Origin: an uncultured Pseudomonadales bacterium
GTDB lineage: Bacteria; Pseudomonadota; Gammaproteobacteria; Pseudomonadales; UBA7434
NCBI GenBank assembly: GCA_943787705.1
Contig: CALSNL010000002.1
Location: forward strand, 451,694 to 515,693
Reading direction: 5' to 3'
Length of the DNA stretch: 64,000 nucleotides
Part shown: positions 33,855 to 58,766 of the stretch, piece after piece
How the letters are laid out: each line of letters starts with the position of its first letter
Numbering within the stretch: the first letter of the stretch is position 1
Notes under the pieces: model-generated
Databases searched by the model: none
Told to the model about the DNA's origin: nothing
The model's input: the letters and a program-made list of their open reading frames with translations, nothing else
Made by a program: the position numbers and the translations under genes

Positions 33855-34000
33855 CTAGTTAATAGAGGTGTAACACAGCATTATGGTCATAGTTCTAATT
33901 TTAGAATTACTAAAGGCTCCAAGAACGCTACCAGCATAAAAAATCACTAGAAATACTTAGGCCTAGAAAAGAGGCGCAATTGTAGCGGCAAAGAGTAGAC

Positions 34001-34448: not shown

Positions 34449-34477
34449 TTGATCCCAGAAGCTTTTATGCGTAGAAT
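34449..34477 (+). promoter_or_regulatory. candidate sigma70 promoter of rpmH
   Basis: TTGATC (34449-34454), 17 bp spacer, TAGAAT (34472-34477). About 75 nt upstream of the rpmH ATG. Confidence 0.45.
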
Positions 34478-34553
34478 CCTGCGCCCTTTTGTGGGTGTTT
34501 GCATGCCTTAGGCACAAACATTTTGAACACGTAAATAATTTGGTAATAGAGCA

Positions 34554-34688
34554 ATGAAAAGAACTTTTCAACCCAGTACTTTAAAGCGTAAACGCAGTCA
34601 CGGCTTCCGTGCTCGTATGGCAACTAAAAATGGACGCGCACTTATTAATCGCCGTCGCGCTAAAGGCAGAAAACGTTTAACTGCGTAA
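34554..34688 (+). CDS. rpmH: 50S ribosomal protein L34
   Basis: Below the ORF-track size cut-off. My own translation is [44 protein letters not shown] (44 aa), the canonical L34 sequence. Confidence 0.97.
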
Positions 34689-34841
34689 TATCTATTATTG
34701 ATCGCCAACGATATAGAGCTACTTTTATTGATAATAAATCAGTAATTCTATGTAACATCTGCTTTATATCGTGCGGCCGTCAGTGTTCGCTCTCTTCTTA
34801 GCATTTAAGTAGTCTGAGTTAAGTAGCCTGAGTTAATCAGT

Positions 34842-37388: not shown

Positions 37389-38771
37389 ATGGACAACGAT
37401 ACTATTACCGCTATTGCTACTGCAGCAGGAAAAGGCGGTATTGGTATTGTTCGTCTTTCAGGTCCAAAATCTTTAGCTATTGCTGCGCAATTAACACAAA
37501 CAGATTTATCTCCTCGCCACGCATTATTCTCATCCTTTGTTGATAAAAATCTTGAAAAGATTGATGAAGGTATCGCCTTATATTTTCCTAGACCACACTC
37601 CTTTACCGGTGAAGACGTTGTTGAGCTACAAGGGCATGGTGGAGCTGTTGTTCTTAATCTTTTACTCGCAGAAACAGTAAAGCTTGGGGCACGTATAGCA
37701 AGGCCTGGTGAGTTCTCAGAGCGCGCATTCTTAAACGATAAAATAGATTTAGTCCAAGCTGAAGCAATTGCGGATATTATTGAAAGTCGCTCAGAGACAG
37801 CTGCAAGGTCAGCCATGCGGTCATTGAGTGGTGAGTTTTCAAAAAAGATACAGACACTGACTAACGAGATAACTAAGCTTAGAATTTATGTAGAAGCCGC
37901 AATTGATTTTCCTGAAGAAGAGGTTGATTTTGTTTCTGACGGTTACGTATTGAATGAGCTAAACCAGTTAAGTAGTTCAATAGAAGCTATTTGGCGGCAG
38001 GCAAAGCAAGGCAGTTTAATTCGTGATGGTGTATCGGTTGTTATTATTGGGAAACCGAATGCGGGTAAATCGAGTTTATTAAACTTATTAGCTGGTGACG
38101 ATTTAGCGATCGTTAATCAACGAGCCGGCACGACTCGCGATATTTTACGCGAGGATATACAAATTGATGGATTGCCTTTACGGATAATAGATACCGCAGG
38201 ATTGCGTGATTCTGATGACGAGATAGAGCAAGAAGGAATACGTCGTGCTAAAAAAGAAATAGAAAAAGCTGATGTTATTTTATTTATGCGTGATTCGGTT
38301 ACGGAAGGTGCGTTTGCTGAAGATAAAAAACAAACAATAGAAAGTATTCATAAAGAGCTTTCAAGTTTTGAAATAATACCGCTTAAATCAACTTCGTTTA
38401 TTGTTGTGAATAATAAAATAGATATAAGTGGTTCTAGGGCTTCGGTGGATACGAATAATTATTTTACTGAGGTTTCTTTGTCGGCCAAAACAGGTGATGG
38501 ATTTAACTTGTTTACAAAGAGCCTTAAGACGCTTTGTGGTTTTAGTGATAGTGAGAATAACTTTGTTGCACGTAGTCGTCATATTGAGGCGATTGATAAT
38601 GCGCGGGGTTATATTTTAGAGGGTAAGAAACAGTTGCTGGAGAATCAAGCGGGTGAGCTGCTAGCTGAGGATTTAAGACAGGCGCAGAATTATTTGGGGA
38701 TGATAACAGGTAAGGTTTCTTCTGATGATTTGCTTGGTGAGATATTTTCTAGTTTTTGTATTGGGAAATGA
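37389..38771 (+). CDS. mnmE: tRNA modification GTPase MnmE
   Basis: 460 aa. DTITAIATAAGKGGIGIVRLSG, G1 motif GKPNAGKSSLLN, DTAGLR, C-terminal CIGK. Confidence 0.96.
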   Translation: MDNDTITAIATAAGKGGIGIVRLSGPKSLAIAAQLTQTDLSPRHALFSSFVDKNLEKIDEGIALYFPRPHSFTGEDVVELQGHGGAVVLNLLLAETVKLGARIARPGEFSERAFLNDKIDLVQAEAIADIIESRSETAARSAMRSLSGEFSKKIQTLTNEITKLRIYVEAAIDFPEEEVDFVSDGYVLNELNQLSSSIEAIWRQAKQGSLIRDGVSVVIIGKPNAGKSSLLNLLAGDDLAIVNQRAGTTRDILREDIQIDGLPLRIIDTAGLRDSDDEIEQEGIRRAKKEIEKADVILFMRDSVTEGAFAEDKKQTIESIHKELSSFEIIPLKSTSFIVVNNKIDISGSRASVDTNNYFTEVSLSAKTGDGFNLFTKSLKTLCGFSDSENNFVARSRHIEAIDNARGYILEGKKQLLENQAGELLAEDLRQAQNYLGMITGKVSSDDLLGEIFSSFCIGK

Positions 38772-38797
38772 TTTTTTCTTTTATTTAATAGGGTTTT

Positions 38798-39596
38798 TAT
38801 ATTCTGGGTTTTTACTTTTTCTGTTTGATTTTTCAATCAAGACCGTCGGGGTGGCCCGACACGCCAGTCACTTTTCTTTGCTTGTGCAAAGAAAAGTAAC
38901 CAAAAGAAAGCACACAATCTGACGAAGATTGACCCCGATATAACCTATTCGCTTTGGGGTGGTTTTATCCAGTACATCTTAGCAGCGCCTACGAAAACGT
39001 TTTTCACTCGACTTAATTGCTCGTCAATATCTGAGCTCGCCTCCAGCCAATATCATTCTGATCCCTCAGACTTTTCAAAACACAATGCGGCTACAACGAA
39101 CAAGTTCAGTAGAGCTTCTTTTTATTTTAGAACAAGTAAAAACCGTGCCTAACGGCCGGCTTTTACTATTGAGCTCCGCATGCCGCTCAAAAGGAAAAAA
39201 AGAAAAAAGAGTAGAACTACTATTTCGCTCAAAGGTAAAATTGGACGTAAAGCTTGATGCAAGTGCAGCACAAAAAAAGTACCCCCTATACCGCTTGGCG
39301 ATAATCTCTCTGGAACTGCTGGACAGAAAACACTACGAGATGCACCCGTCGTGGTTAAGCTTCGCCGTTAAGCTTACGGCATTTTTTGGTTACTTTTTGT
39401 TGCTGTAGACAAAAAGTGACTGGCTGTCGGGCCACCCCCGACGACCTTGAATTTAAAACTTAAAAAATAGAAGTAAACAACCAGAATATAAGAGCACTAT
39501 CAGGTGGGGCTTAAAGATCTAGATTCTGGCTGTCGGGCCACCCCCGACGACCTTGAACTTAAAACTCAAACAAAAAAGTAAAACCTCAGAATATCG
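38798..39596 (+). mobile_element. non-coding MITE-like structured element, copy A (614 bp core at 38837-39450 plus repeated arm units)
   Basis: Terminal inverted repeats TCAAGACCGTCGGGGTGGCCCGACACGCCAGTCACTTTT (from 38837) and AAAAGTGACTGGCTGTCGGGCCACCCCCGACGACCTTGA (to 39450). GC hairpins GTCGGG-N5-CCCGAC at 38845-38860, 39426-39442 and 39532-39548. Subterminal AT hairpins at 38871-38896 and 39393-39416. About 97.5 percent identical to the reverse complement of 56552-57165. No credible ORF. Confidence 0.6.
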
Positions 39597-39622
39597 ACTA
39601 ACCAAAACAACTAACACTACGC

Positions 39623-40177
39623 TTATGCCGCCTGCCAATCCCGACTCCCACCCCGAAACCTCGACTTCAAATATTCCATCTGATCACCAATAATCTGCCT
39701 ATTACTCAAATACATAAACTCATAAATATTCGGCGTAAACGGCACCGCCAGTAACTCCATCCCCGCCTCCTCTGGTGTTCGTGCTCCTTTAAAGCTATTA
39801 CAACGCTGGCAAGCAGCCACAAGGTTCTGCCAGCTATCCTGACCTCCCTGCGAAGATGGAATAATATGATCTCGAGTTAACAAGCCATAAGGAAACTGTT
39901 TACCACAATAAAGACAAAAGTGATCATCACGCCTAAAAAGCGTTCGATTAGATAAAGCTGGAGTTAAACATTGTCGCGAAGTCTTACCATCGCAAGCAAT
40001 AATTGGAGGGATAGATAATATTGATCGATAACCTTTGCGATTGTAGCCGCCATGGAGAATAGAACGCCTACTCCCTAAACTCCATACCACTTGTTGCTTA
40101 ACGCAAAGTGTTGCTGCAATTTCCTTAGAAACCCAACATTGTGGCAAACCAGCTTTATTTAATCGCAATATTTTCAC
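39623..40177 (-). CDS. free-standing HNH endonuclease (McrA/COG1403-like, with N-terminal domain of unknown function)
   Basis: 184 aa. HNH/zinc motif CLYCGKQ...LTRDHIIPSSQGGQDSWQNLVAACQRCNSFKG. Occupies the slot between mnmE and mnmG, where enterics carry mioC. Confidence 0.85.
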   Translation of the reverse strand: MKILRLNKAGLPQCWVSKEIAATLCVKQQVVWSLGSRRSILHGGYNRKGYRSILSIPPIIACDGKTSRQCLTPALSNRTLFRRDDHFCLYCGKQFPYGLLTRDHIIPSSQGGQDSWQNLVAACQRCNSFKGARTPEEAGMELLAVPFTPNIYEFMYLSNRQIIGDQMEYLKSRFRGGSRDWQAA

Positions 40178-40259
40178 AAGTTACCTTAAATAAGTTGTGC
40201 TAAATAAATTAAATATCAGTTTTTTAATAATAAACGCAGTTTTTTTTCATCTCAATAGC

Positions 40260-40530
40260 TGTGTGTAAACACTTGAGCAGCTGTGCATAAAGAACATATT
40301 TATACACAGAAATACGGCCTTTTGATTTTTATGCCAAAAGTTTAAGTTTTTAACTCTCAGCTTGGCAGCAGCTTAGACACGCTTTACCTCTGCAGTTATG
40401 CTTGCTGTAAGTAGCTGTAATCAATAAGTAAAAAGGGGTTTTCCACAGCAAAATGCTTTGCTTATTATTACTATATTATATAAATATCTATATATACATA
40501 AAGACATATACATAAGAAATAAAAAGATAA
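40260..40530. other. candidate E. coli/Vibrio-type oriC: DnaA-box cluster plus AT-rich unwinding region upstream of mnmG
   Basis: DnaA-box matches: TGTGTGTAA 40260-40268 (8/9), TGTGCATAA 40282-40290 (reverse complement TTATGCACA, 9/9 to TTATNCACA), TTATACACA 40300-40308 (9/9), TTTTCCACA 40439-40447 (8/9). An AT-rich stretch at 40450-40530 follows, with the tandem 12-13-mers ATATACATAAAGA (40492-40504) and ATATACATAAGA (40506-40517) on the mnmG-proximal side. I saw no GATC sites here. Confidence 0.5.
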
Positions 40531-40679
40531 GAAAGTCCATTCAAAGGTCTCAAGCAATACGTTTAATCAGGGCTGTTCAGCCTGAAATTTAATGTTATAT
40601 TGCGCGGCCTGCTTGCAAGGATGTCGTTAAATAACCATCCTAAGCTAACAAACCAATACGAGATACAGACTCAAAACTC

Positions 40680-42620
40680 ATGCGATACCCTGATAACTTC
40701 GATGTCATTGTGATTGGTGGCGGCCATGCCGGTACCGAAGCGGCGCTTGCTGCAGCTCGCATGGGCAGTAAAACACTGCTGTTGACTCACAACATCGAAA
40801 CATTGGGCCAGATGTCATGCAACCCAGCGATTGGCGGCATAGGCAAAAGTCATTTGGTCAAAGAGATCGATGCACTTGGTGGCGCAATGGCTATTGCTGC
40901 CGACCATGGTGGTATTCAGTTTCGTGTTTTGAACGCAAGAAAGGGCCCTGCCGTTAGAGCAACTCGAGCACAAGCCGATCGCGTTTTGTACAAAGCAGCT
41001 ATTCGATCGATTCTTGAGAATCAAGCTAACCTCACTATTTTTCAAGCGTCGGTTGATGATTTAATTATCAATGAGAGCGTAGCAACCCCGGTAGTTACTG
41101 GGGTTATAACAAATATCGGCTTGGAGTTTCACGGTAAAACGGTTGTTTTATCTGCTGGCACATTCCTTGGCGGTAAAATTCATATTGGCTTAGATAATCA
41201 TTCAGGTGGTCGAGCCGGTGATCCGCCATCCATTGCTTTGGCAAATAGATTACGCGAATTACCCTTTCGAGTCGGCCGTTTAAAAACAGGTACCCCTCCT
41301 CGTATTGATGCAAAAACTGTCGATTTCTCTGAGTTACAAGAGCAAAAAGGTGATACACCGCTTCCGGTTATGTCGTTTCTTGGCAGTGTCGATGACCATC
41401 CGGAGCAGGTGAGTTGTTATATCACCCATACCAATGAGCAAACGCACAATATTATTCGTGAAGGTCTCGATAGATCACCTATGTACACAGGGGTGATTGA
41501 GGGAACAGGACCACGTTATTGCCCATCGGTAGAAGATAAAATTCATCGCTTTGCCGATAAATCCTCGCATCAGATCTTTATTGAGCCAGAAGGGTTAAAT
41601 ACCCATGAGCTCTACCCAAATGGTATATCGACTAGCTTACCTTTTGATATTCAAATACGTATGGTTCGTAGTATCAAAGGCTTTGAGAATGCCCATATTA
41701 CGCGGGCTGGCTATGCCATAGAGTATGATTTTTTTGATCCTAGAGATTTAAAACCAAGTTTGGAAACCCGCTTTATTGATGGTTTATTCTTTTGTGGCCA
41801 AATTAACGGCACAACTGGTTACGAAGAAGCCGGCGCCCAAGGTCTGTTAGCTGGAACGAATGCATCGCTGAAAGCACAAGATCGGGAGTCTTGGTGTCCA
41901 GGTCGTGATTTAGCGTATATCGGTGTAATGGTCGATGACTTGATCACTTTGGGGACTCAAGAACCTTATCGCATGTTTACTAGTCGTGCTGAATATCGAC
42001 TCATATTACGTGAAGATAATGCCGATGCTCGACTCACAGAAGTGGGTCGATCCTTAGGATTAATTGACGAAAATCGATGGCGAGCGTTTAGTGAAAAGCA
42101 AGAAATTATAGCGCGTGAAGAACAGCGATTATCTTCAACTTGGGTTCAGCCTGATTCAAGTACGGCCGAAAAATTGAATCCAAAACTCAAAAACCCATTA
42201 AGTCGTGAGTATAATTTAGCCGATTTATTAAAGCGTCCAGAGCTAAATATTAACGATATTTACGATGCTACTGACTTAAAAATCAATCATCAACAAGCCA
42301 AAGAACAAATAGAAATTACGGCAAAATATGCTGGTTATATTGATCGTCAACAAGACGATATTAATAAACTTCGCCGTCATGAAAAAACCAAAATTCCGGC
42401 AGATTTTGACTTTAGTTCAGTGTCTGGTTTAAGCAATGAAGTGAAGCAAAAATTGAATGACGCTAAGCCTGAAAGTTTAGGACGAGCCAGTCGAGTGCCG
42501 GGTGTGACCCCTGCCGCTATTTCCCTTTTGCTTATTTTTCTAAAAAAATTAGGTCATCTTGAGAATTTGGATTTGAATGAATCAGATATTCAAAAAAGTA
42601 AAAACCAACAAGTTCTTTAG
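40680..42620 (+). CDS. mnmG: tRNA uridine 5-carboxymethylaminomethyl modification enzyme MnmG (GidA)
   Basis: 646 aa. [19 protein letters not shown] motif, [20 protein letters not shown]. Confidence 0.97.
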
Positions 42621-42634
42621 ATTCTTGCCAGTAA

Positions 42635-43279
42635 TTGGAAGTCGTTCATTTGAATAATCAGCATCATGAATTATTGCGCAGAGGAGCAGAAAAACTGTCT
42701 CTCCCAATTAGCGATAAACAAATCGATCAATTACTTCAGTTTGCTGAATTGATCCTTAAGTGGAACAAAACGCATAATTTAACGGCAATTACAAACCCTG
42801 ATGAGGTAGTAAGTAAACACTTACTTGATAGCTTAAGTGTTTGCTCGTCTTTTCCTAAAGGTAATGCATTAGATGTAGGGAGCGGTGCAGGCTTACCGGG
42901 TATTCCATTAGCCATTATTAATAGCCATCAAGATTACACACTGGTTGACTGTAGCTTAAAGAGAATTGCTTTTATAAAAGAGGTTAAAAGAAAGTTAGCG
43001 CTAACTAATGTGGCTGCTATTCATAGTCGGGTCGAAGATTTTGATGGTGGCTATTTCGATGTTATTACTAGCCGAGCGTTTAGCTCGCTAGGTAAAATGC
43101 TAGAGCAAACGCAACATTTGCTGGCTGATGATGGATGTTGGTTTGCCATGAAAGGCACGCTGCCAACAGAAGAAATTAGAGAAATGGCGGATAATTTTAA
43201 AGTACAAAAAACACTCAAACTATCGGTTCCAGGTTTAAATGCTGAAAGGCATATTATTCAAATTGGACGATCAACGTAA
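42635..43279 (+). CDS. rsmG: 16S rRNA (guanine527-N7)-methyltransferase RsmG (GidB)
   Basis: 214 aa; start uncertain, with an alternative TTG at 42650. Motifs KWNKTHNLTAI and DVGSGAGLPGIPLAI. Confidence 0.93.
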   Translation: MEVVHLNNQHHELLRRGAEKLSLPISDKQIDQLLQFAELILKWNKTHNLTAITNPDEVVSKHLLDSLSVCSSFPKGNALDVGSGAGLPGIPLAIINSHQDYTLVDCSLKRIAFIKEVKRKLALTNVAAIHSRVEDFDGGYFDVITSRAFSSLGKMLEQTQHLLADDGCWFAMKGTLPTEEIREMADNFKVQKTLKLSVPGLNAERHIIQIGRST

Positions 43280-43457
43280 ATAATAAATTGGCTCTATTCG
43301 ATATAAATACAATTACGGCTGGCGTTTTTTCCCTCAAACCATCGATAATAGCAACTGACATGGCGGCTGATTCAGATAGCCGATAATATGGCAGAAAGAA
43401 GATGGTCAATTCAGTGATGACTTTCAGACATAGCTGCACAAAACTCCGGATACGATT

Positions 43458-44246
43458 TTGGCTAGAATTTTTGCGATAAGTAATCAGAAAGGTGGTGTTG
43501 GTAAAACAACCACTACCGTGAATCTTGCTGCCTCGCTTGCGGCAACAAAAAGACGTATTTTATTAGTTGATCTTGATCCGCAAGGTAATGCCACAATGGG
43601 TTGTGGTATTGAGAAGAATGATCGCGAATTAACTTTGTATGATCTGCTTCTGCAAAACACATCCGTTGAGCAAGTTGTTTGTTATAGCGAGTCGGGAAAA
43701 TTTGATGTACTGCCATCAAATGGAGATCTCACCGCCGCGGAAGTTGAGTTGTTAAATGTTCCTAATAAGGAATATGTCCTCTCTGAAATATTAAACAGTG
43801 TTCGAGATCAATACGATTTTATCTTAATTGACTGCCCCCCCTCTTTGAGTATGTTAACGGTTAATGCCATGGCAGCAGCTGACGGCGTTATTATTCCGAT
43901 TCAATGCGAGTACTATGCCTTGGAAGGTTTGTCAGCGTTAATGAACACCATTGCTAGAGTCGCTGATTCCATTAACCCTAATATTATTATTGAGGGTTTA
44001 TTGAGAACGATGTATGACCCGCGCAACAGTTTGACCAATGATGTATCGGATCAGCTAATGCAGCATTTTGGCGAGCGGGTTTATCGAACCGTTATTCCTC
44101 GCAATGTTAGATTAGCTGAAGCTCCCAGCTATGGGCAGCCGGTATTGGCTTATGATCGTCAATCTAAGGGTGCGGTGGCTTACTTAGCACTAGCAGGTGA
44201 GCTGCTTCGTCGTGAAGAGGCCAGAAAGCCTTTAGATAGCTTTTAG
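43458..44246 (+). CDS. parA: chromosome partitioning ATPase ParA (Soj)
   Basis: 262 aa with a TTG start. Deviant Walker A NQKGGVGKTTT. DCPPSL. Confidence 0.95.
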   Translation: MARIFAISNQKGGVGKTTTTVNLAASLAATKRRILLVDLDPQGNATMGCGIEKNDRELTLYDLLLQNTSVEQVVCYSESGKFDVLPSNGDLTAAEVELLNVPNKEYVLSEILNSVRDQYDFILIDCPPSLSMLTVNAMAAADGVIIPIQCEYYALEGLSALMNTIARVADSINPNIIIEGLLRTMYDPRNSLTNDVSDQLMQHFGERVYRTVIPRNVRLAEAPSYGQPVLAYDRQSKGAVAYLALAGELLRREEARKPLDSF

Positions 44247-44330
44247 ATAACTCTAATCCTGTATCAAGCTATAACCCACAAGAGTTCAGCTTTATTCATT
44301 TCAATAGCAAATAATTTAGGCGCAACAATA

Positions 44331-45359
44331 ATGGCAATAAAAAAGAAAGGCTTGGGTAAAGGGTTAGATGCTTTATTAGGAGATGCTTTTAATGCCGCCT
44401 CAAAGCAGCAAAAGGTTAATACCTCGCCAAGCAACCAGCCAGCTAGAGGGTTAGCTGCTGAATTAAACCAGCTATCTAGCCGTGCGCAGCAACCGTCGAC
44501 AGCAGAAACCGATTCATTAGTAGAGAAGCCGATAGAGCCTTTAGCTGGGCAGCCAGTGTTAAAAACAGATACATTACTAGAAGTGCCTGTTGAAATGTGT
44601 CAGCGAGGCAAATATCAACCCAGACGCGATATCGATCCTAGCTCCTTAGAAGAGTTGGCAGCTTCTATTCGTAATCAAGGGGTTATGCAGCCCATTATAT
44701 TAAGGGCTGTTGCCAGTGAATCAGCCGCAGAAGCCAGTTATGAAATAATTGCTGGTGAACGACGTTGGCGTGCAGCGCAGTTAGCTGGGCTAACAACTGT
44801 TCCCGCTGTTGTGAAAGATGTACCCGATGAAGCCGCGATGGCAATGGCATTGGTAGAAAATATTCAGCGTGAAGATCTCAATTCCATGGAAGAGGCTTAT
44901 GCGCTATCCAGATTAAATCAAGAGTTTGGCCTTACACATCAACAGGTTGCTGACATTGTTGGTAAATCGAGAGCTGCGGTGTCCAACACTTTGCGCTTAA
45001 TGAGTTTACATAAAGATGTTAAGTTGCTTTTGGAAAATGGAGATTTAGAAATGGGTCATGCTAGAGCTTTATTGGGCTTAGAAGGTATGACTCAAGTCAA
45101 TACAGCGAAAGAAGTGGTCAACCGTGGTTTGAGTGTGCGCCAAACCGAAGCTCTCGTAAAAAGCGTTCAAACACCCAAAGCAGAAAAAACAACCAAAAAC
45201 GCTATCGAAGACCCGAATATTTCTCGCTTACAAACTGATTTATCAGACACTTTAGGTGTTCCTGTGTCGTTTAGTCATTCAGAAAATGGTCGAGGCAAAT
45301 TAACAATTAAATACAATAGCCTTGATGAGTTGGATGGAATTTTAGAGCATATTAAGTAA
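44331..45359 (+). CDS. parB: chromosome partitioning protein ParB (Spo0J)
   Basis: 342 aa. N-terminal KKGLGKGLDALLG, ParB box IIAGERRWRAAQLAGL, HTH GLTHQQVADIVGKSRAAVSNTLRL. Confidence 0.95.
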   Translation: MAIKKKGLGKGLDALLGDAFNAASKQQKVNTSPSNQPARGLAAELNQLSSRAQQPSTAETDSLVEKPIEPLAGQPVLKTDTLLEVPVEMCQRGKYQPRRDIDPSSLEELAASIRNQGVMQPIILRAVASESAAEASYEIIAGERRWRAAQLAGLTTVPAVVKDVPDEAAMAMALVENIQREDLNSMEEAYALSRLNQEFGLTHQQVADIVGKSRAAVSNTLRLMSLHKDVKLLLENGDLEMGHARALLGLEGMTQVNTAKEVVNRGLSVRQTEALVKSVQTPKAEKTTKNAIEDPNISRLQTDLSDTLGVPVSFSHSENGRGKLTIKYNSLDELDGILEHIK

Positions 45360-45426
45360 ACGTTAGAATTACCGTTAAAAGCCCGCTGCAAAAGGGCGAA
45401 AAAACAACAATCCCAAGCAATCTTGG

Positions 45427-45455
45427 TTGCTTCCCCTGAGTTGATTATTTATAAT
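45427..45455 (+). promoter_or_regulatory. candidate sigma70 promoter of the atp operon
   Basis: TTGCTT (45427-45432), 17 bp spacer, TATAAT (45450-45455). About 155 nt upstream of atpI. Confidence 0.45.
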
Positions 45456-45610
45456 CCGCGCCGCTTGGATCGGTACTATCTATTCACTGTGTTATTTAGT
45501 GATCGGAAACAGTGCAAAGTTGGTTGAAATGACTAATAAGGGTGGTATTTAGCTGTTTAATAGGCAGTCATAAAAATACTTAAAACCTTGTTTTAAAATA
45601 ACTTTCAGCG

Positions 45611-46039
45611 TTGCGCAATCCGTTTATGGTGAATATAAGTATAAGTAGCAAACCTCCTCTTCTTCAGCAGGTATTATTGCAGTTGCTTGCAGCAACTCTA
45701 CTATCGCTCGCTTTTAGTTGGTATCAAGATTGGGCGTGGACAACGTTAGTTGCCACGATGGTTGGGTCTTTAATAGCGACAAGCACAGGATTTTATTTTA
45801 ATTGGCGTTCATTTCAGAGTGATTTAAGCGTTAATGATGAAGCAGCAGCTCATCGTGTAGTCTCGGATGTTTATCGAGCATCAATGGCAAAAATGTTGAT
45901 GGCAGGTGTGTTGCTGGCGTTAGCTTTCCGATACGGAGATCAATTAGATAAACCTTTTTTACTGCTTGGGTTTGTTGTAATTAGTCTTTTTGGTGTGGTT
46001 TGTAATGCGTTTTTAACGCGAGCTGATGAACCGCAATAG
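45611..46039 (+). CDS. atpI: F0F1 ATP synthase protein I
   Basis: Small hydrophobic protein at the first position of the atp operon. Start uncertain: TTG at 45611 or ATG at 45626. Confidence 0.8.
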   Translation: MRNPFMVNISISSKPPLLQQVLLQLLAATLLSLAFSWYQDWAWTTLVATMVGSLIATSTGFYFNWRSFQSDLSVNDEAAAHRVVSDVYRASMAKMLMAGVLLALAFRYGDQLDKPFLLLGFVVISLFGVVCNAFLTRADEPQ

Positions 46040-46163
46040 CGCAAAAACAGCATAACAATGGTCTGTATGCGGGGTTTGAATTAATCCCAGTAAGTTGACC
46101 GGAAGCAGAAAGATTATTAGTTATACGTCATTTATTAGTACGTTATAAATATTGAGAAACTAG

Positions 46164-47048
<885 letters not shown>

Positions 47049-47124
47049 TCGACAAAGTGAATAGTCGTTACGTAAAGAGTAATGTGTAAAACAGTTTTTT
47101 ATATTTAAACATTTAAATTTTTGA

Positions 47125-47364
<240 letters not shown>

Positions 47365-47498
47365 TTTTTGTCGAAGACAAAAAGAAAACCAAACAGCCGG
47401 TCCAACTCGTTTTTGATAGTAAGGGTTTAACAAGTTTCTTTTGTTAAGCACCTTTTGTTAATACCTCCGGCTGTTCATTAATTGAAAAGGGTAATGCA

Positions 47499-47969
47499 GT
47501 GAATATTAATCTCACTTTGTTTGCGCAATTAATCAGTTTTGCGATCTTTGTATGGTTTTGTAAAAACTATGTATGGCCACCTATTATTGGTGCTATGCAA
47601 GAGCGACAAAAGCAAATTGCTGACGGCTTAAATGCCGCAGAAAAAGCAGGTCAAGATCTTGAAGATGCGCGTCAACAAGTAAAAGCACAGCTGGTTGAAG
47701 CCAAAGCGCAAGCTGCAGGTATTCTTGACCAAGCAAACAAACGTGCTGCGCAGATTGTTGATGAAGCAAAAGAGCAAGCGTTTGAAGAGGGTCTTCGCCT
47801 AAAAGGTGCAGCGCAAGCTGATATCGATCAAGAAGTGAATAGAGCGAAAGAAAAACTTCGCTCACAAGTTGCTTCTTTGGTTTTGGTTGGTGCAGAGAAA
47901 ATTCTGGAAGCGTCTATTGATGAGACCGCACATAGCGATATCGTCAACAAGCTTGCAGCCAATCTTTAA
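47499..47969 (+). CDS. atpF: F0F1 ATP synthase subunit b
   Basis: 156 aa with a GTG start. N-terminal TM followed by a long charged coiled coil. Confidence 0.93.
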   Translation: MNINLTLFAQLISFAIFVWFCKNYVWPPIIGAMQERQKQIADGLNAAEKAGQDLEDARQQVKAQLVEAKAQAAGILDQANKRAAQIVDEAKEQAFEEGLRLKGAAQADIDQEVNRAKEKLRSQVASLVLVGAEKILEASIDETAHSDIVNKLAANL

Positions 47970-47983
47970 ATCGGGAATCGGTA

Positions 47984-48520
47984 ATGGCTGAATTAAGAAC
48001 ATTAGCTCGTCCTTACGCAAAAGCGGCTTTTCAGGCTGCTGGCGAGTCAGGCGCTGTCCAACTTTGGGCAGATCAGTTAACGCTGCTTGGATCTATATCT
48101 TCTCAAGCTAAAGTTACTGACGCGATTAGTTCATCAACGATTGATGCGGTAACACAGGTGTCGACACTCACTAATTTAGCGGGTGATGATTTAAGTGTTG
48201 CTATAAACAATTTCTTGCATGTGCTCGCAAGCAATAAGCGATTATTGTTATTGCCTTCAATTGCAGAATTGTTTAATGAATTAAAAGCAGATTTAGAACG
48301 CTCTGTTGAGGTGAATATAAGCACCGCTTTTGCTTTGGATAGTGCAGTTGAAGCTAAATTAGCAGAAGCATTAAAAGATAAATTGCAGCGTGATATACGT
48401 GTACACACTGACGTCGATAAATCGTTGTTAGGTGGTGTCGTTGTTCGTGCGGGTGATATCGTTATTGATGGTTCTATTAAAGGACGAATCGCTAAGCTCG
48501 CTGAGGCGATGTCGATTTAA
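47984..48520 (+). CDS. atpH: F0F1 ATP synthase subunit delta
   Basis: 178 aa. N-terminus LARPYAKAAF. C-terminal GGVVVRAGDIVIDGSIKGRI. Confidence 0.94.
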   Translation: MAELRTLARPYAKAAFQAAGESGAVQLWADQLTLLGSISSQAKVTDAISSSTIDAVTQVSTLTNLAGDDLSVAINNFLHVLASNKRLLLLPSIAELFNELKADLERSVEVNISTAFALDSAVEAKLAEALKDKLQRDIRVHTDVDKSLLGGVVVRAGDIVIDGSIKGRIAKLAEAMSI

Positions 48521-48605
48521 GTAACATATTTTAATTTGGGTTATAGAGCGGCTTTTAGATTCGCCGTTTATTAAGTAATGAATTTGTAGGTTTGAGGAAT
48601 AGACA

Positions 48606-50150
48606 ATGCAACAGCTGAATCCATCTGAGATTAGCGAGATTATCAAACAGCGTATTGATCAACTGGATATTTCCAGTGAAGCGCGCAATGAAGGCACAGT
48701 GGTTTCCGTAACTGACGGCATCATTCGAATTCACGGTCTAGCCGATGCTATGTACGGTGAGATGATCGAATTTGAAGGCGGCATATACGGTTTGGCGCTT
48801 AACCTTGAGCGTGACTCTGTTGGTGCGGTAATTCTTGGTGACTATAAAAGTATTGCGGAAGGTCAATCTTGTCGCTGTACGGGTCGTATTCTTGAAGTAC
48901 CTGTTGGTCCTGAATTACAAGGTCGTGTTGTTGATGCGCTTGGTAATCCAATTGACGGCAAAGGTCCTATTGAAGCAAAAGAAACTGATGCTATAGAAAA
49001 AGTTGCGCCAGGTGTTATCGCCAGACAATCGGTTGATCAGCCTGTGCAAATTGGCCTAAAAGCCGTTGATGCCATGGTGCCAATTGGTCGTGGTCAACGT
49101 GAATTAATCATCGGTGACCGTCAGGTCGGTAAAACAGCGATTGCTGTTGATGCCATCATCAACCAAAAAGGTAAAGGCATTAAGTGTGTCTATGTTGCCA
49201 TTGGTCAGAAAGCCGCTTCTGTAAATGCAGTGGTTCGTAAGCTTGAAGAGCACGGCGCAATGGAACATACCATTGTTGTTGCTGCAACAGCTTCTGATCC
49301 TGCGGCGATGCAGTTTTTAGCACCGTTTGCCGGTTGTACCATGGGTGAATACTACCGTGACCGCGGCGAAGATGCGTTAATCATTTATGATGATTTAACC
49401 AAGCAGGCTTGGGCTTATCGTCAAATTTCTTTACTACTTCGTCGACCACCAGGTCGTGAAGCTTATCCTGGTGACGTCTTCTATTTGCACTCACGTTTAT
49501 TAGAGCGTGCCGCTCGTGTAAATGCAGAGCATGTAGAGCAAATCACTAATGGTGCTATTAAAGGTAAGACGGGTTCTTTAACAGCATTACCTATCATCGA
49601 AACACAAGCAGGTGACGTATCGGCTTTTGTACCGACTAACGTTATCTCTATTACTGATGGCCAGATTTTCTTAGACACTGATTTATTCAATGCGGGTGTT
49701 CGTCCAGCAATGAACGCTGGTATTTCTGTATCACGAGTGGGTGGTGCAGCACAGACTAAGATCATTAAGAAACTATCTGGTGGTATTCGTACTGCGTTAG
49801 CGCAATATCGTGAGCTTGCAGCCTTTTCTCAGTTTGCTTCTGATCTCGATGACGCGACTAAAGCTCAGCTTGATCACGGTGAGCGTGTTACTGAATTAAT
49901 GAAGCAAAAACAGTATGCGCCTCAGTCAATTGCTGAAATGGCATTATTGATTTATGCAGCAGATAACGGCTTTCTTAACGACGTAACCGTTGAAAAAATT
50001 GGTGATTTCGAAGATGCCTTACTTTCTTATTCTCATTCAGAGCACGGCGCCTTGCTAGAAAAAATAGCAACTGACGGCGGTTGGGATAAAGATACTGAAG
50101 CATCCTTTAAGTCATTGTTAGAGAGCTTCAAGTCTACACAGACTTGGTAG
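48606..50150 (+). CDS. atpA: F0F1 ATP synthase subunit alpha
   Basis: 514 aa. Walker [12 protein letters not shown]. Confidence 0.98.
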
Positions 50151-50183
50151 TTAACTATTAAACGCAAACGTAAAGAGTAAAAC

Positions 50184-51047
50184 ATGGCTAGCGGCAAAGA
50201 GATACGGACGCAGATTACCAGTATCAAAAGCACTCAAAAAATTACGAGTGCAATGGAAATGGTGGCTGCGAGCAAAATGCGTAAAGCGCAAGAGCGAATG
50301 CAAAAAGGTAAGCCTTATTCCAAACGGATTAAGTCGGTTATTGGCCATCTTGCAAATTCGACGCCTGAATATCGCCATATGTTTATGGAACAGCGTGAAA
50401 TAAAGCGCGTTGGATATATTGTTGTTTCTACAGACCGTGGTTTATGCGGTGGCTTGAACATTAACTTGTTTAAACAAGCTATAGCAAGCATGAAAGAGTA
50501 TTCCGATAAAAATATAGATGTTGATTTATGTTTAGTCGGCGCTAAGGGTGCTAGCTTCTTTAATTCTTATGGAGGCAACGTTGTTGCAGCCGTTCGTGAT
50601 TTAGGCGAAGACCCAGCGGTAATCGATTTAATTGGCAGCATTAAAGTGATGCTCGATGCCTATGAAGAAGGCACCATTGATCGTTTATATATTGTAAATA
50701 ACGAATTTGTAAACACGATGACTCAGCAGCCAGAAGTGGAGCAGTTATTACCACTAAGTTCTGATGATGATGAATCAATGCAACACCATTGGGATTATAT
50801 TTATGAGCCCGATGCAAAAGATTTACTTGATGGCTTATTGGTTCGATATATCGAAGCGTTAGTTTATCAAGCAGTAGTAGAAAACGGGGCCTGTGAGCAA
50901 GCCGCACGAATGATTGCAATGAAAAGCGCAACCGACAATGCTGGTGACCTTATTGATGATTTACAGTTGGTGTACAACAAAGCACGCCAATCAGCGATTA
51001 CCCAAGAACTTTCAGAAATTGTTAGTGGTGCCGCAGCAATTAGTTAA
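50184..51047 (+). CDS. atpG: F0F1 ATP synthase subunit gamma
   Basis: 287 aa. [23 protein letters not shown]...[19 protein letters not shown]. Confidence 0.97.
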
Positions 51048-51092
51048 GTGGTGCATTGAGCAATTTTTATTAAAACAGTTAAAAGCATTTAA

Positions 51093-52508
<1,416 letters not shown>

Positions 52509-52551
52509 TCTGAATTATAGATAAGCAAAGATAGAAGGCGGGATATAAAGA

Positions 52552-52974
52552 ATGGCAAGTATTCAATGTGACATCGTTAGTGCCGAGGAATCCATTTTCT
52601 CTGGCTCTGTCAAAATGATTATCGCTACAGGTTTGCTGGGAGACTTAGGTATCTCAGCAGGTCACTCACCGTTACTGACCGGCTTAAAACCTGGTCCAGT
52701 ACGTGTGATTAATGAAAACGATGATGAGCAAGTTTTTTATGTTTCTGGTGGCTTTTTAGAAGTTCAGCCCAGCGCTATCACCGTTTTGGCTGATACTGCG
52801 GTTCGTGCTGAAGATCTTGATGAAGCAGCAACACTAGAAGCACAGAAACAGGCTGAGCAAGATATTGATAACCCGAGTGGCGACATTAACTACTCACTTG
52901 CGGCCTCTGAGCTCGCTGCAGCCGTCGCTCAACTTAGAACGATCCGTTCAATTAAGAAAAAGTTAGGTAAATAA
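52552..52974 (+). CDS. atpC: F0F1 ATP synthase subunit epsilon
   Basis: 140 aa in the last position of the atp operon. Motifs GISAGHSPLLT and FYVSGGFLEVQP. Confidence 0.95.
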   Translation: MASIQCDIVSAEESIFSGSVKMIIATGLLGDLGISAGHSPLLTGLKPGPVRVINENDDEQVFYVSGGFLEVQPSAITVLADTAVRAEDLDEAATLEAQKQAEQDIDNPSGDINYSLAASELAAAVAQLRTIRSIKKKLGK

Positions 52975-53000
52975 CCACTTTTTTCAAATTGGTAAGCCAA

Positions 53001-53027
53001 AAAAGGGTAGCAACTGCTACCCTTTTT
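53001..53027 (+). terminator. rho-independent terminator after atpC
   Basis: AAAA, then GGGTAGC (53005-53011), loop AACT, GCTACCC (53016-53022), then TTTTT (53023-53027). The A-tract upstream makes it potentially bidirectional. Confidence 0.8.
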
Positions 53028-53096
53028 AGTATGCATAAGATATTGTTGTGCAAAAAATAACCAGTTATAGTTTTCTTCAAAAAAACAGGTCTTCTT

Positions 53097-54476
53097 TTGA
53101 ATATTGATGTTGTGATTCTCGCTGCCGGACAGGGCAGTCGTATGCGCTCTAATAAACCCAAGGTTTTACATGCCATTGGCGGAAAGCCCATGGTGCAACA
53201 TGTCATTGATGCTGCAAAAGCGTTAGGTGATGTCAAAGTCCATATTGTTGTTGGACACGGTGCTGATCAAGTTCAAGCTAATTTAGGCGCAGACAGTCGA
53301 TACAGTGATTGCCAGTACATTGAGCAGCAAGAACAGCTAGGTACAGCGCATGCTGTGCTCCAAGTGCTACCGGCATTAACGTCTGGCTCAAAAACCCTTA
53401 TTCTTTACGGCGATGTGCCGTTAATTAAGACGGAAACACTTCGTGCAATGCTAGAAGCCGTCAACGAGACTTCTATGGCCGTTTTGACGGCCTCACTTGA
53501 TGATGCCACTGGCTATGGCCGTATTGTCCGTAATGATCATAACGAAGTCTTATCGATCGTTGAGCATAAAGATGCTAAAACGGATCAACTAGCGATTAAT
53601 GAAATCAATACCGGCATTATGTGTATCCCGCAAAGCTGTTTAGCAAAGTGGCTACCCAATATTGGTAACGATAATGCGCAAAAAGAATATTATTTACCTG
53701 ATGTTATCGCTATGTCAGTTAACGATGGTGTGGCAATTAATACGCCCAGTCCGCAATCCTTATTTGAAATACAAGGTGTTAATAACCGTCTGCAACTTGC
53801 CGAACTCGAGCGTGAATTTCAACGTGAGCAGGCAAATAAGCTGATGATAGAAGGGGCGACATTGTCTGATCCTGCCCGTGTTGATATCCGAGGCAATGTT
53901 ACCGTAGGCCAAGATGTCTATATTGATATTAACGCCGTATTCCGAGGTGAAGTTGTTATAGGTGCTAATGTTAGCATTGGTCCTAACTGCGTCATCACTA
54001 ATGCATCGATTGCTGAAGGCAGTAATATTTTAGCGAACAGTGTTATAGAAGATGCTGTGATTGGTAAAGATTGTAATATTGGGCCTTTCGCAAGACTCCG
54101 ACCCGGTGCAAACCTTGCTGATGGATGCAAAGTGGGTAACTTTGTTGAAATTAAAAATGCACAGCTTGGTGATGGTAGTAAGGTGAATCATCTTTCTTAT
54201 GTGGGTGATGCTGAAATTGGTACAGACACCAACATTGGTGCAGGAACCATTACTTGCAATTACGATGGTGCTAATAAATTCAAAACCGTGATGGGTAACA
54301 ATGTATTTGTCGGTTCGAACAGTACTTTAGTGGCGCCTGTAGAAATTGCTGACGGTGGATTTGTCGCAGCGGGATCAACCGTTACACAAACTGTACCTGC
54401 AAATAATTTAGCGGTCGGTCGTGGTAGACAAAGAAATATAACGGGTTGGAAAAAACCGGTTAAGAAAAAATCATAA
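53097..54476 (+). CDS. glmU: bifunctional UDP-N-acetylglucosamine pyrophosphorylase / glucosamine-1-phosphate N-acetyltransferase
   Basis: 459 aa with a TTG start. [19 protein letters not shown]-terminal hexapeptide repeats. Confidence 0.96.
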
Positions 54477-54516
54477 TCTATTTTATAGTAAAAAAACAAA
54501 TCAGCGGAAAATCAAT

Positions 54517-56349
54517 ATGTGTGGAATAGTGGGTGCTGTAGCGCAGCGAGATATCGCAGCGATATTATTAGAAGGCTTAAAGCGTTTAGAGTATCGCGGT
54601 TATGATTCTGCCGGTCTTTCGGTAACTGATAAACAAGGCATTAATCAGCGAATTCGTCGAGTAGGTAAAGTGCAAGCATTAGCTGATGCAGTTGCTGAAG
54701 CTGGCGCGCAAGGCGGTACTGGTATTGCACATACACGTTGGGCGACGCATGGCGAGCCTAATGAAAATAATGCTCACCCACATTTATCGAATGAGCGTAT
54801 TACCATTGTTCACAACGGCATTATAGAAAACCACGAAGATTTAAGAGTTTCGCTAACAGCAAAAGGTTATGCTTTTGTTACTGATACTGACAGCGAAGTG
54901 ATTTGCCATTTAATTAATGAAGAATTAAAAAGTGCTGATTCGTTAGTAGCGGCAGTACAAAAGGCGGTTGTTCAACTTGATGGTGCTTACGGTACTGTTG
55001 TTATGGACAATAACGATCCTGATAGATTAGTGGTTGCAAGATCGGGTAGCCCACTGGTTATTGGTTACGGCATTGGCGAACACTTTGTTGCCTCTGATCA
55101 ATTAGCCTTATTACCGGTAACGCGTCGCTTTGCATTTCTTGAAGAAGGTGATGTTGCAGAAATAACACGTTCAGAAGTTAAAATTTTTGATTGTGATGGC
55201 ACGCCTGTAGAGCGTGAAATTACAGAATCAACAATTAGTCATGATACCGGTGACAAGGGTACTTTTCGTCACTATATGCTTAAAGAAACGTATGAGCAGC
55301 CAATTGCGATTCAGCGAACATTGGAAGGTCGGCTAGAAGCGGGTAAAGTTTTAGATCGATCTTTTGGTGAATCAGCCGAAAAGTTATTACCCAATGTTGA
55401 GCATGTACAAATTATTGCTTGCGGTACCAGTTACCACGCAGGTATGACAGCGCGTTATTGGTTTGAAGAATTTGCCGGCGTGTCGTGTAATGTAGAAATT
55501 GCATCAGAGTATCGCTATAGAAAATCGTTTGTTCGTCCTAATAGTTTATTAGTGACTATCTCGCAGTCGGGTGAAACAGCAGATACACTAGCGGCATTGC
55601 GTTTAGCTCAGCAACAAAATTATATGACTAGCCTGACGATTTGTAATGCGCCAGGTTCTTCACTAGTACGTGAATCAGATATGGCTTATATGATGGAGGC
55701 CGGTGTTGAAATCGGTGTTGCATCAACAAAAGCGTTCACCGTGCAGTTAACCGGTTTAATAATGTTAGCAACAGCCATTGGCCATCACAAAAATTTATCG
55801 TCAGAAGCTGAAGCGAAAATTGTGCAAGCCTTGCAAAGCCTGCCAACAAAAATAGAGCAAGCCCTTGCAATGGATGCGGATATTGAAGTGTTAGCAGAAG
55901 ATTTTGCAGATAAGCATCACAGCTTATTTCTAGGCCGTGGTGATCAATACCCGATTGCAATGGAAGGAGCGCTTAAGTTAAAAGAGATTTCTTATATTCA
56001 TGCCGAAGCTTATGCGGCGGGTGAATTAAAGCATGGGCCACTAGCGTTAATTGATGCTGATATGCCGGTTATTGTTGTTGCGCCGAATAATGAATTGGTT
56101 GAAAAATTAAAATCGAATGTTGAAGAAGTGCGTGCGCGTGGCGGATTGATGTATGTATTTGCTGATAAAGCAGCATCATTTAAATCGGACGATACAATGA
56201 AGGTATTACATGTGCCAAGTTGTGATCCATTATTAGCGCCAATTATTTATACCATCCCACTTCAATTGCTGTCTTATCATGTTGCGATTATTAAGGGGAC
56301 TGATGTTGATCAGCCTCGTAATTTGGCTAAGTCGGTTACGGTGGAGTAA
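54517..56349 (+). CDS. glmS: glutamine--fructose-6-phosphate aminotransferase
   Basis: 610 aa. MCGIVGAV N-terminal nucleophile. SIS domains. C-terminal KSVTVE. Confidence 0.98.
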
Positions 56350-56411
56350 GTTTTTATAAGCTTGCGCCTAGAGACGATGGGTTTTTTAGGTTTATCGTTT
56401 TATTAGGTGCC

Positions 56412-57307
56412 GGTTGTTTACTTTATTTGTTTGAGTTTTCAATCAAGGTCGTCGGGGGTGGCCCGACAGACTGAAGCCAGAGTTTTATGCATAAACTTTT
56501 AGTTATATTGGTATATTCTGAGGGTTTACTTTTTTTGTTTAAGTTTTAAATTCAAGGTCGTCGGGGGTGGCCCGACAGCCAGTCACTTTTTGTCTACAGC
56601 AACAAAAAGTAACCAAAAAATGCCGTAAGCTTAACGGCGAAGCTTAACCACGACGGGTGCATCTCGTAGGGTTTTCTGTCCAGCAGTTCCAGAGAGATTA
56701 TCGCCAAGCGGTATAGGGGGTACTTTTTTTGTGCTGCACTTGCATCAAGTTTTACGTCCAATTTTACCTTTGAGCGAAATAGTAGTTCTACTCTTTTTTC
56801 TTTTTTTCCTTTTGAGCGGCATGCGGAGCTCAATAGTAAAAGCCGGCCGTTAGGCACGGTTTTTACTTGTTCTAAAATAAAAAGAAGCCTACTGAACTTG
56901 TTCGTTGTAGCCTCATTGTGTTTTGAAAAGTCTGAGGAATCAGAATGATATTGGCTGGAGGCGAGCTTAGATATTGACGAACAACTAAGTCGAGTGAAAA
57001 TCGTTTTCGTAGGCGCTGCTAAGATGTACTGGATAAAACCATCCCAAAGCGAATAGGTTATATCGGGATCAATCTTCGTCAGATTGTGTGCTTTCTTTTG
57101 GTTACTTTTCTTTGCACAAGCAAAGAAAAGTGACTGGCATGTCGGGCCACCCCCGACGACCTTGAACTTAAAACTTCAAAGAAAACATAAAAGTCCAGAA
57201 TATAAGAATACTATGAGATCCAGTTTAAAGATCTATATTCTAGCTATCGCCCCACCCCCGACGGTCTTGACCTTAAAACAAAAAAAATTAAAAGGATACC
57301 TCGACTC
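56412..57307 (-). mobile_element. non-coding MITE-like structured element, copy B (614 bp core at 56552-57165, inverted relative to copy A, with two arm units on each side)
   Basis: The reverse complement of 56552-57165 aligns with 38837-39450 with about 15 differences by hand alignment. GC hairpins at 56451-56467, 56560-56576 and 57141-57157, plus a degenerate one at 57246-57262. The outermost recognisable arm begins about 62 bp after the glmS stop. Confidence 0.6.
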
Positions 57308-57362
57308 ATAACATCAAACATAAAGCCGATATCTAAAAGTTAAATAAAAAGAGGAGGGGGGG

Positions 57363-58766
57363 TTAAGCTAGTGCTAGCTTTTCGTTTTTCTTTTCGGCCA
57401 TTTTCTTTTGCGTTTCTTCAATATCAGCATTAGTCCGCTGCTTCGTAATGCCAGGTATACCAAGACACAATAATTTGGTTATCTCAGTTCTTGGCAGCGC
57501 CTCACTTAAATAAAAGCCCTGAATCGTATCGCAGCCTAACTCTTGCAATAAATCCGCATGCTCAACATTCTCAACACCTTCAGCCACAACGCGCATATCT
57601 AAAGCATGAGCAACATCAATAATGGCCTGAGTAATAGCCACATCAACTTTATTGTCGAGCAAGTTAGCAATAAACATCTGGTCAATCTTCAAGATATCAA
57701 CAGGCAATGTTTTTAATAATTTAAAAGTTGAGTAGCCGGTACCAAAATCATCAATGGCAATCTCGATGCCCATATCACGCAAACCGGTTAAGGTCTCAGA
57801 TGTTTTTGCTAACGTATCTAAAATCAGTGATTCAGTTAGCTCAATAATTAATTGCTCTGGTGGAAATCCAGTACGTTTTAAAATACGTTTTATCTGTACC
57901 AGCATATCCTGACGAATAAGCTGCTTCGCGGATAAGTTAACCGCAATCTTCGCATGAGGAACGCCATCTTCAATCCACTTGGCACCATGTCGACAGGCTG
58001 TCTCTAAAACCATTTCACCAATGCCTGAGATTAAACCCGCATTCTCAGCAATAGGGATAAACTCATTGGGTGATACCCAGCCCAAATCGTCATGCTTCCA
58101 ACGCACTAATGCCTCAATGGAAGTGATGTGGCCGGTCGCGAGATTCATCTTAGGTTGGTAATGAACAGTTAGGTCTTTGCGCGAAATAGCATGGCGCAAT
58201 TCAATTTCAAGATTAAGACGTCGCAGTGATGGCGCGTTAGAGCTACTGCGAGTAAAGAATTTAACACTGTCACCGCCAACAGCTTTGGCATTTTGTAACG
58301 CACTAATAGCTTGGTGCAATAAAGTTTGCTCATTATCTGCTTTGTTAGGATAAAGACTAATACCGATACTGGCTGTGGTCATTAATTCTTGCTGGTCTAT
58401 AAAAACCGGTTTGCGAATAACGTTGAGTAAACGATTAGCAAGTTGACGAAGTTGAGAGGCATTGTCGACACCCTCACTTAACACGGCATATTCATCAGAA
58501 CCCAAATGCATGAGCAGATGATCACCATTGAGAGCATGTGTTAGTCGGTCGGTAGTGACATCAAGAAGCTGTTGTCCCACTTCTGGGCCAAGCGTTGATG
58601 TGATTGTGTTAAAGCGATCAAGATCGATAAAGAGAAGTGCTAGAGATTTTTTACGGAGCCGTGCCCGTGCGATGGCAAGTTGCAATCGCTGCTTGATGTC
58701 TATACGGCCAGCCAACAGTTTGGCATTTTCAAAAGCCGTAGCACCAAAAAAAGTATCAGTACTCAA
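57363..58766 (-). CDS. GGDEF-EAL protein (degenerate GGDEF site, intact-looking EAL phosphodiesterase); no sensor domain
   Basis: 467 aa. The GGDEF position reads LGSDEYA. EAL domain motifs EALVRW, NLS, ELTES, DDFGTGYS, KIDQMF, EGVE. Confidence 0.88.
   Translation of the reverse strand: MSTDTFFGATAFENAKLLAGRIDIKQRLQLAIARARLRKKSLALLFIDLDRFNTITSTLGPEVGQQLLDVTTDRLTHALNGDHLLMHLGSDEYAVLSEGVDNASQLRQLANRLLNVIRKPVFIDQQELMTTASIGISLYPNKADNEQTLLHQAISALQNAKAVGGDSVKFFTRSSSNAPSLRRLNLEIELRHAISRKDLTVHYQPKMNLATGHITSIEALVRWKHDDLGWVSPNEFIPIAENAGLISGIGEMVLETACRHGAKWIEDGVPHAKIAVNLSAKQLIRQDMLVQIKRILKRTGFPPEQLIIELTESLILDTLAKTSETLTGLRDMGIEIAIDDFGTGYSTFKLLKTLPVDILKIDQMFIANLLDNKVDVAITQAIIDVAHALDMRVVAEGVENVEHADLLQELGCDTIQGFYLSEALPRTEITKLLCLGIPGITKQRTNADIEETQKKMAEKKNEKLALA

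Follow-up and report, generated by a model that had tools for sequence, protein, structure and literature searches.

In the 64,000-nt stretch of Pseudomonadales DNA analysed here (the window), glmS (54517-56349, plus strand; Pfam GATase and SIS domains) is followed by a non-coding repeat, referred to as copy B, and then by a convergent GGDEF/EAL gene (57363-58766, minus strand; Pfam). Another copy of the repeat, copy A, is localized between mnmE (37389-38771, plus strand) and a convergent gene encoding an HNH protein (39623-40177, minus strand), both assigned by Pfam. The original prediction, made from the letters of the window, had placed both copies between convergent genes, in agreement with these assignments. 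It had also placed the outer arm of copy B ~62 bp after the glmS stop codon and the beginning of copy A ~26 bp after the mnmE stop codon: the close downstream position stands in both cases, but the alignments of the arm HMM start at 54 nt and 24 nt, respectively. The window ORFs that were checked are housekeeping genes.

Organization of the repeat

The repeat consists of inverted arrays of ~107-nt arm units placed around a non-coding core, the whole being ~0.8-1.0 kb long. An arm unit contains, in this order, CTGGCT, the palindrome GTCGGG-CCACC-CCCGAC, GACCTTGAAYTTAAAAC, an A-rich tail ending with CAGAATAT, and a spacer of ~35 nt which folds back on the A-rich tail. The arrays hold one to three units, arranged head-to-tail and pointing away from the core on both sides, and the arm HMM score drops from the inner to the outer units in every array with at least two of them. 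According to the repeat search, the inverted arms are 53-60 nt long and 87-92% complementary.

With up to 3 mismatches allowed, the window has 6 occurrences of the 17-nt arm palindrome (GTCGGGCCACCCCCGAC), vs. 0.02 expected from shuffles, and the arm-unit HMM recovers 7 arms in the 64 kb, every one at copy A or copy B. On the glmS side, copy B has an outer arm at 56403-56471 (minus strand, arm HMM 58.1 bits, palindrome at 56451-56467) and an inner arm at 56507-56582 (minus strand, 74.2 bits, palindrome at 56560-56576). The outer one is identical in L003, L004 and L006 and nearly identical in L081 (L-numbered names such as L001 or L003 designate the comparison loci set against the window). The core of copy B (56577-57138, minus strand, core HMM 706 bits) belongs to the short form, with ~562 nt, and is inverted with reference to that of copy A. 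On the GGDEF/EAL side are found an inner arm at 57134-57209 (plus strand, 62.7 bits, palindrome at 57141-57157) and an outer, degenerate arm at 57242-57296 (plus strand, 32.5 bits), with 3 mismatches in its palindrome (57246-57262). The original prediction had likewise given copy B two arm units per side, with the outermost one degenerate. Copy A has one arm on its left, i.e., mnmE, side (38795-38867, minus strand, 55.7 bits), a short-form core (38862-39425, plus strand, core HMM 711 bits) and two arms on its right, i.e., HNH, side (39420-39494 and 39526-39597, spanning 39420-39597, plus strand, 72.3 and 68.3 bits).

The global alignment of copy B (56552-57165, reverse complement) with copy A (38837-39450) gives 15 differences in 615 columns, 2 of which are single-base gaps. 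The hand count of the original prediction (about 15 differences in 614 bp, including two 1-nt indels) was thus exact. The repeat search describes the same pair as two inverted stretches, one of 377 nt at 98% and one of 280 nt at 94%. The differences are unevenly placed: 13 are found in the first 278 alignment columns, towards the terminal hairpin T2, and only 2 in the remaining 337 columns, i.e., on the side of the terminal hairpin T1 and its arm. This distribution suggests that a more recent conversion tract may cover the T1 half.

Copies A and B (38772-57362) are located on the same replichore, inverted and 17 kb apart, and they bracket mnmG, rsmG, parAB, the atp operon, glmU and glmS. The cumulative GC skew is lowest around 34-36 kb, and position 34001 has a perfect DnaA box (region 33855-34841), thus the replication origin is probably localized between dnaA and rpmH. 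An inversion could potentially arise between the two copies, which bears on genome stability; no inverted arrangement of the 17 kb was seen in 15 places among the matches listed.

The core exists in several forms. The short form has ~560 nt in the window, while the long form (L001, L003, L022, L028, L069 and L081) has ~680 nt, with an extra A/G-rich stretch of 115 nt. A mini form with a core of ~120 nt is found in L166, and L054 has a solo palindrome without core but with inverted flanks.

Each end of the core can be folded as a hairpin of the form TTGGTTAC-stem-loop-stem-GTGACTGG. T1 (56578-56617, minus strand) is the end nearest to glmS in the window strain, and its predicted pairing is kept by two-sided changes; T2 (57098-57138, plus strand) shows a G-C to A-T double change in 5 copies. 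Across 12 distinct variants, 98.9% of the cells are paired, and 4 pairs have changed on both sides (e.g., G-C to T-A in T1 and G-C to A-T in T2), a covariation that was matched by none of 500 shuffles. These alignments show that the predicted terminal hairpins are kept by compensatory changes. Moreover, four G-T wobble pairs are found at the base of the hairpins, with the effect that the strand running outward folds into the hairpin more favourably than the complementary one.

The conserved 3' module of the core contains a terminator-like hairpin, GCCGTTAAGCTTACGGC followed by a T run (56622-56638, minus strand), in which the variants change to G-U-compatible pairs. No covariation was found in the 3' module outside the terminal hairpin. 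Folding of the whole core as RNA gives a z of about -4 on both strands, a value that is uninformative because it is driven by the two ends pairing together.

The core has no conserved ORF: ORFs of 107, 87 and 171 aa differ between copies, and the 107-aa one is without Pfam match. Nothing credible was obtained with Rfam, whether for the whole window at gathering thresholds or for copy A at E values up to 10, and the tRNA/tmRNA scan found none. BLAST of the element against plasmid and phage collections gave no match, and neither the arm nor the core pattern occurs in viral contigs.

Two further observations concern the composition of individual copies. A GC-rich insert of ~57 nt (...GCGCAGCGCCTGAAGGGCGCCCCGTAGGGTGAGCGAAGCGAATC...) is present in the T1 loop of L022 (700-756) and L028 (421-474), and also in L011, L017, L033-L035, L040, L043, L047, L050, L056, L067 and L070. 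It contains GTAG motifs and a small palindrome, and by its sequence it looks like a second, REP-like repeat family which would have landed inside the first. Tandem partial units are found in L043 (150-400) and L047 (680-1092, reverse strand). In these loci a complete core end with one arm is followed by a second unit beginning within the core at CCTATACCGC, in which the 3' module, the hairpin and the arm are repeated. The arrays can thus hold core remnants besides arms.

Distribution at gene ends and empty sites

The exact arm pattern was searched in one genome per species and was found in at least 64 loci of four GTDB species. The numbers of loci per genome are at least 45 for the MAG CAXAHI01, at least 16 for Cellvibrionales SI072_bin135, at least 2 for the SAG AM-377-L22 and at least 1 for JBELIP01. 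In nearly all of these loci, a contig end is no more than a few hundred bases away, and at least 60 contig ends of the four MAG/SAG species are concerned. The arms are on the plus strand at contig starts and on the minus strand at contig ends, i.e., they point outward, thus the assemblies break inside the core. Arms at so many contig ends are those of a multi-copy dispersed repeat. Wherever a contig end reaches into the core, its only match there is to the non-coding core. In the window's own species, too, short-read contigs break off right after mnmE.

In a crude nearest-ORF test, the 3' end of the neighbouring gene faces the element in 47 of 59 flanks. The proteins recurring beside the arms in the 64 listed loci are orthologous neighbours alone, with no transposase-like paralogues. 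When 80 metagenome glmS loci were searched with the HMMs, the family was found only at GlmS identities of at least 91%. Several further sites are common to both MAGs. The arm palindrome was found in no paper by the literature search, which returned nothing relevant on SAR92 repetitive elements. The comparison leads to the conclusions that: (i) the spacer at glmS is an ordinary one between convergent genes, like dozens of others, the proximity to glmS being coincidental; (ii) the repeat is previously undescribed and restricted to one clade, a small group of marine gammaproteobacteria.

The comparison of empty with occupied sites, which had been proposed together with the original prediction, reveals both states. 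The spacer between mnmE and the HNH gene has 20-29 nt in L161-L165 and 46 nt in L167, vs. 851 nt in the window. The order yidC-mnmE-HNH-mnmG is kept in these six loci, their HNH proteins have 72-79% identity, and neither arm nor core was detected by the HMMs in their mnmE-HNH spacers. In the same manner, L083 (82% GlmS identity) has glmS, the GGDEF/EAL gene and uvrD in order, with a glmS spacer of ~300 nt without the element. These junctions show that the element is an insertion relative to the related genomes.

At the mnmE/HNH site the element is present in the window's species, in two MAG species (HNH proteins 90-92% identical) and in an 86% lineage; at the glmS site, relatives with 91% GlmS identity have it as well. 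The occupied sites are old, and no clean, recent presence/absence pair was found among the loci compared. On their outside the arm arrays end raggedly, in agreement with decay, but they do not delimit the mobile unit.

Turnover and orientation at a single site

Strains with identical GlmS have three alleles past glmS, i.e., a short core, a long core in the reverse orientation and a 6.8 kb island. The short core, in the minus orientation and with T1 beside glmS, is that of the window, L004 and L006. L001 and L003 have the long core in the plus orientation; the Flye-style contig names of these two loci indicate that they are probably long-read assemblies. Both orientations are also found among the relatives at 91% GlmS identity (minus for L081, plus for L080 and L082).

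Copy B is closer to its paralogue than to its orthologue: it is 97.6% identical to copy A, with which it shares the 115-nt deletion, vs. ~92% identity with the copy at the glmS site of the conspecific L001. For the two MAGs, the identities are 0.9-0.98 for the flanking genes and 0.1-0.7 for the arms at the same site; by these values, same-site copies change faster than the flanking genes. At the site of L008/L027, the outer truncated arm is common to both loci and the inner unit is of a different type. The three glmS alleles, the paralogue closer than the orthologue and the fast arms together speak for block replacement from other copies. The comparison shows that, within one site, the core and the inner arm are exchanged together as one block, in one orientation or the other, and that older, more decayed arms remain outside.

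The comparison of the window with L081 gives another view of the rates. The element is mostly 0.9-1.0 identical per 50-nt bin, vs. 0.52 for the fourfold-degenerate sites of glmS and 0.63 for those of the GGDEF/EAL gene. Selection on a host function could explain this high conservation equally well as turnover.

Two other loci deserve a description on their own. The short-read contig of L004 (12774-20002) matches the window as far as the right arms of copy B; beyond them lie unrelated genes (ogt-like, methyltransferases) and, at the contig end, a further copy of the repeat. Such a contig is either the product of a rearrangement through recombining copies or a chimera created at the repeat during assembly. 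In L002 (11834-18639, the same in L005), a 6.8 kb island replaces 56350-57308 of the window, GlmS being identical. It begins at the glmS stop codon and takes the place of the whole repeat. It encodes a serine recombinase of 199 aa (Pfam Resolvase) together with HIT, DUF3427/HNH_2 and NUDIX genes, contains opposed MORN-repeat genes sharing a 113-nt inverted repeat at 87%, and is without Tn7 genes. The 3' end of glmS is thus an integration point in this species, for a different element.

Nature of the repeat and likeness to known elements

The sequence found beside glmS is probably a clade-specific, high-copy, non-coding and non-autonomous interspersed repeat of the foldback type, renewed by arm-templated recombination. 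An enzyme encoded elsewhere in the genome would once have carried the repeat to new spacers, and the existing copies would now owe their renewal mainly to recombination with one another, in which a second copy serves to repair a broken one. Since the left arm is the inverted counterpart of the right one, the template could pair in two ways; the core would then be copied in either orientation, and both orientations would be expected at one site. Recombination between copies cannot explain the first colonisation of new sites, and no transposase or other enzyme linked to the ends was found in the sequences examined.

Such a repeat resembles MITEs by its inverted ends, its lack of coding capacity and its many copies, and the short, long and mini forms recall the internal-deletion variants of MITEs. 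It differs from them since no target-site duplication, defined terminus or related autonomous element was found, and since its inverted ends are arrays of tandem sub-repeats. The foldback elements of eukaryotes (e.g., FB of Drosophila) have long inverted ends made of tandem sub-repeats around a variable middle. The resemblance with FB elements is one of layout alone: they belong to another domain of life and have no sequence relation with the repeat.

The original prediction was that of a non-autonomous derivative of a site-specific, Tn7-like transposon inserted at the glmS attachment site, the arms being TnsB-type binding repeats. The non-autonomous insert stands, i.e., there is no conserved ORF, the sequence is multi-copy and it is absent at the junctions of relatives; the glmS-specific attachment does not, and this Tn7 reading, which was rejected, is now hardly credible. 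The position just past glmS and the several subterminal repeats on each side are indeed those of Tn7-like elements at attTn7. The arms were compared with authentic Tn7 from plasmid R721 (NC_002525.1, tnsABCDE annotated), 200 nt of each end being used. In local alignments of five arms with Tn7-R and Tn7-L, 1 of the 10 comparisons was marginally above 500 shuffles: the inner right arm of copy A scores 27 against Tn7-R (maximum of the shuffles, 26), with the arm stretch CTTAAAACTCAAACAAAAAAG matching CTTAAACTGAACAAAATAG with two gaps. The other 9 are within the shuffles, against the loose likeness between the AT-rich part of the arm and the TnsB-binding repeats of Tn7 ends which the original prediction had mentioned. 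The termini had been noted to lack the TGT of Tn7-type ends, and the sequences agree: the outer boundaries are ...GGTGCCGG / TTGTTTAC... and ...CGACTCA / TAACATC and the core ends are CCAGTCAC...GTGACTGG, whereas Tn7 has 5'-TGT...ACA-3' termini and the Tn7 ends of R721 start with TGTGGGCGGACAA. Tn7 makes a target-site duplication of 5 bp, but no direct repeat of at least 5 nt was found within 25 nt of either boundary of copies A and B. The clustered TnsB-type sites of Tn7 are of ~20-22 bp, vs. a repeat period of ~107 nt. The orientation and the distance past glmS are fixed for Tn7, while the repeat shows both orientations at glmS and a distance from the stop codon of 25 nt (L001) or ~55-62 nt (window). 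Tn7 has one or few copies at a dedicated attachment site, vs. at least 46 contig ends in a single MAG and dozens of copies at unrelated gene ends. No tnsABC/tniQ gene was found in the window ORFs checked, in the fetched loci or in the ORFs recurring beside the arms.

The presence of both orientations at one site in strains with identical GlmS, together with a core flanked by inverted repeats of 53-60 nt, would also be given by a site-specific invertible switch, in which the segment enclosed by the inverted arms, i.e., the core, is turned round by a recombinase. This is very unlikely: the orientation alleles also differ by the 115-nt indel and by ~8% substitutions, no recombinase gene is adjacent to the core, no promoter stands out, and copy A has a single orientation in all nine contigs seen. 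Moreover, the breakpoints of L003 are asymmetric (one at the outer limit of the inner arm, the other within the terminal hairpin of the core), thus there was no clean symmetric flip. A host-useful element under selection, which could insulate convergent genes or stop transcription in both directions between them, or could form a family of small-RNA genes, is improbable in turn. It would agree with the bias to gene 3' ends, with terminator-like hairpins in both directions at conserved places of the core (3-4 vs. 1.1-1.5 expected) and their G-U-compatible changes, and with an element far more conserved than the fourfold-degenerate sites of its neighbours; such predicted two-way hairpins would suit a stop signal between convergent genes. 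Nevertheless, many convergent junctions of the window are without the element, close relatives manage with spacers of 20-46 nt, promoter-like sites are no commoner than in shuffles, there is no covariation outside the terminal hairpin, and selection acting copy by copy would not be expected to give turnover at single sites.

An analogy with the REPIN/RAYT type is possible but remains unlikely as an explanation (REPIN biology is described in bioRxiv 10.1101/2021.07.10.451892). The hairpin ends would be the substrates of a single-copy HUH tyrosine transposase, or of another domesticated nuclease, which would duplicate the repeat by way of a single-stranded DNA intermediate, and the repeat family would be inherited vertically. 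REPIN and REP-BIME of Pseudomonas and enterobacteria are likewise non-coding, palindrome-based extragenic repeats, often found at gene ends, with dozens of copies in one lineage, sites common between species and no transposase of their own. The bias to 3' ends, the same sites occupied across species, the persistence within one clade only, the compensated hairpins whose basal G-T wobbles favour the hairpin of one strand, the absence of terminal duplications and the core-less solo palindrome of L054 with its inverted flanks are all in line with such an analogy. But REPIN and REP-BIME have ~0.1 kb while the repeat, with its large conserved core, is about ten times larger, its tandem 107-nt arm units have no GTAG-type head beside the palindrome, and long symmetric inverted repeats are foreign to substrates of the IS200/IS605 type. 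No RAYT gene was seen in the small part of each genome that was examined.

A more specific proposal, of which the likelihood is quite low, is that of a long-lived, vertically inherited replicator of the REPIN kind, ten times larger, with strand-specific hairpin ends recognised by a single-copy domesticated nuclease. The conserved core might then supply an RNA or DNA structure needed for copying. The HNH protein adjacent to copy A could be one candidate nuclease for such a replicator, the link being that of adjacency alone: it abuts copy A in three species, and the probability of this adjacency by chance is about 1 in 12.

This protein, encoded between mnmE and mnmG (39623-40177, minus strand), has 184 aa, and its HNH domain is closest to the HNH domains of Cas9d and IscB (NCBIfam, PDB). 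It matches in size the HNH-only IshB relatives of IscB, for which ~180 aa have been reported (PMC11610941). As the enzyme of the element, the HNH neighbour was considered and rejected: its family is widespread in Gammaproteobacteria and it has the same position in relatives without the element.

For the foldback-type repeat renewed from its own copies, as preferred here, several consequences can be drawn. For annotation, a false lead to a Tn7 attachment site is removed, and the same sequence is to be expected at many gene ends of the clade, where it will break short-read assemblies. Dozens of copies of a 0.9 kb non-coding repeat are unusual for a small marine genome. Its layered arms, compensated hairpins and two-way block replacement make it a tractable case for the study of how repeats persist and are homogenised in bacteria.
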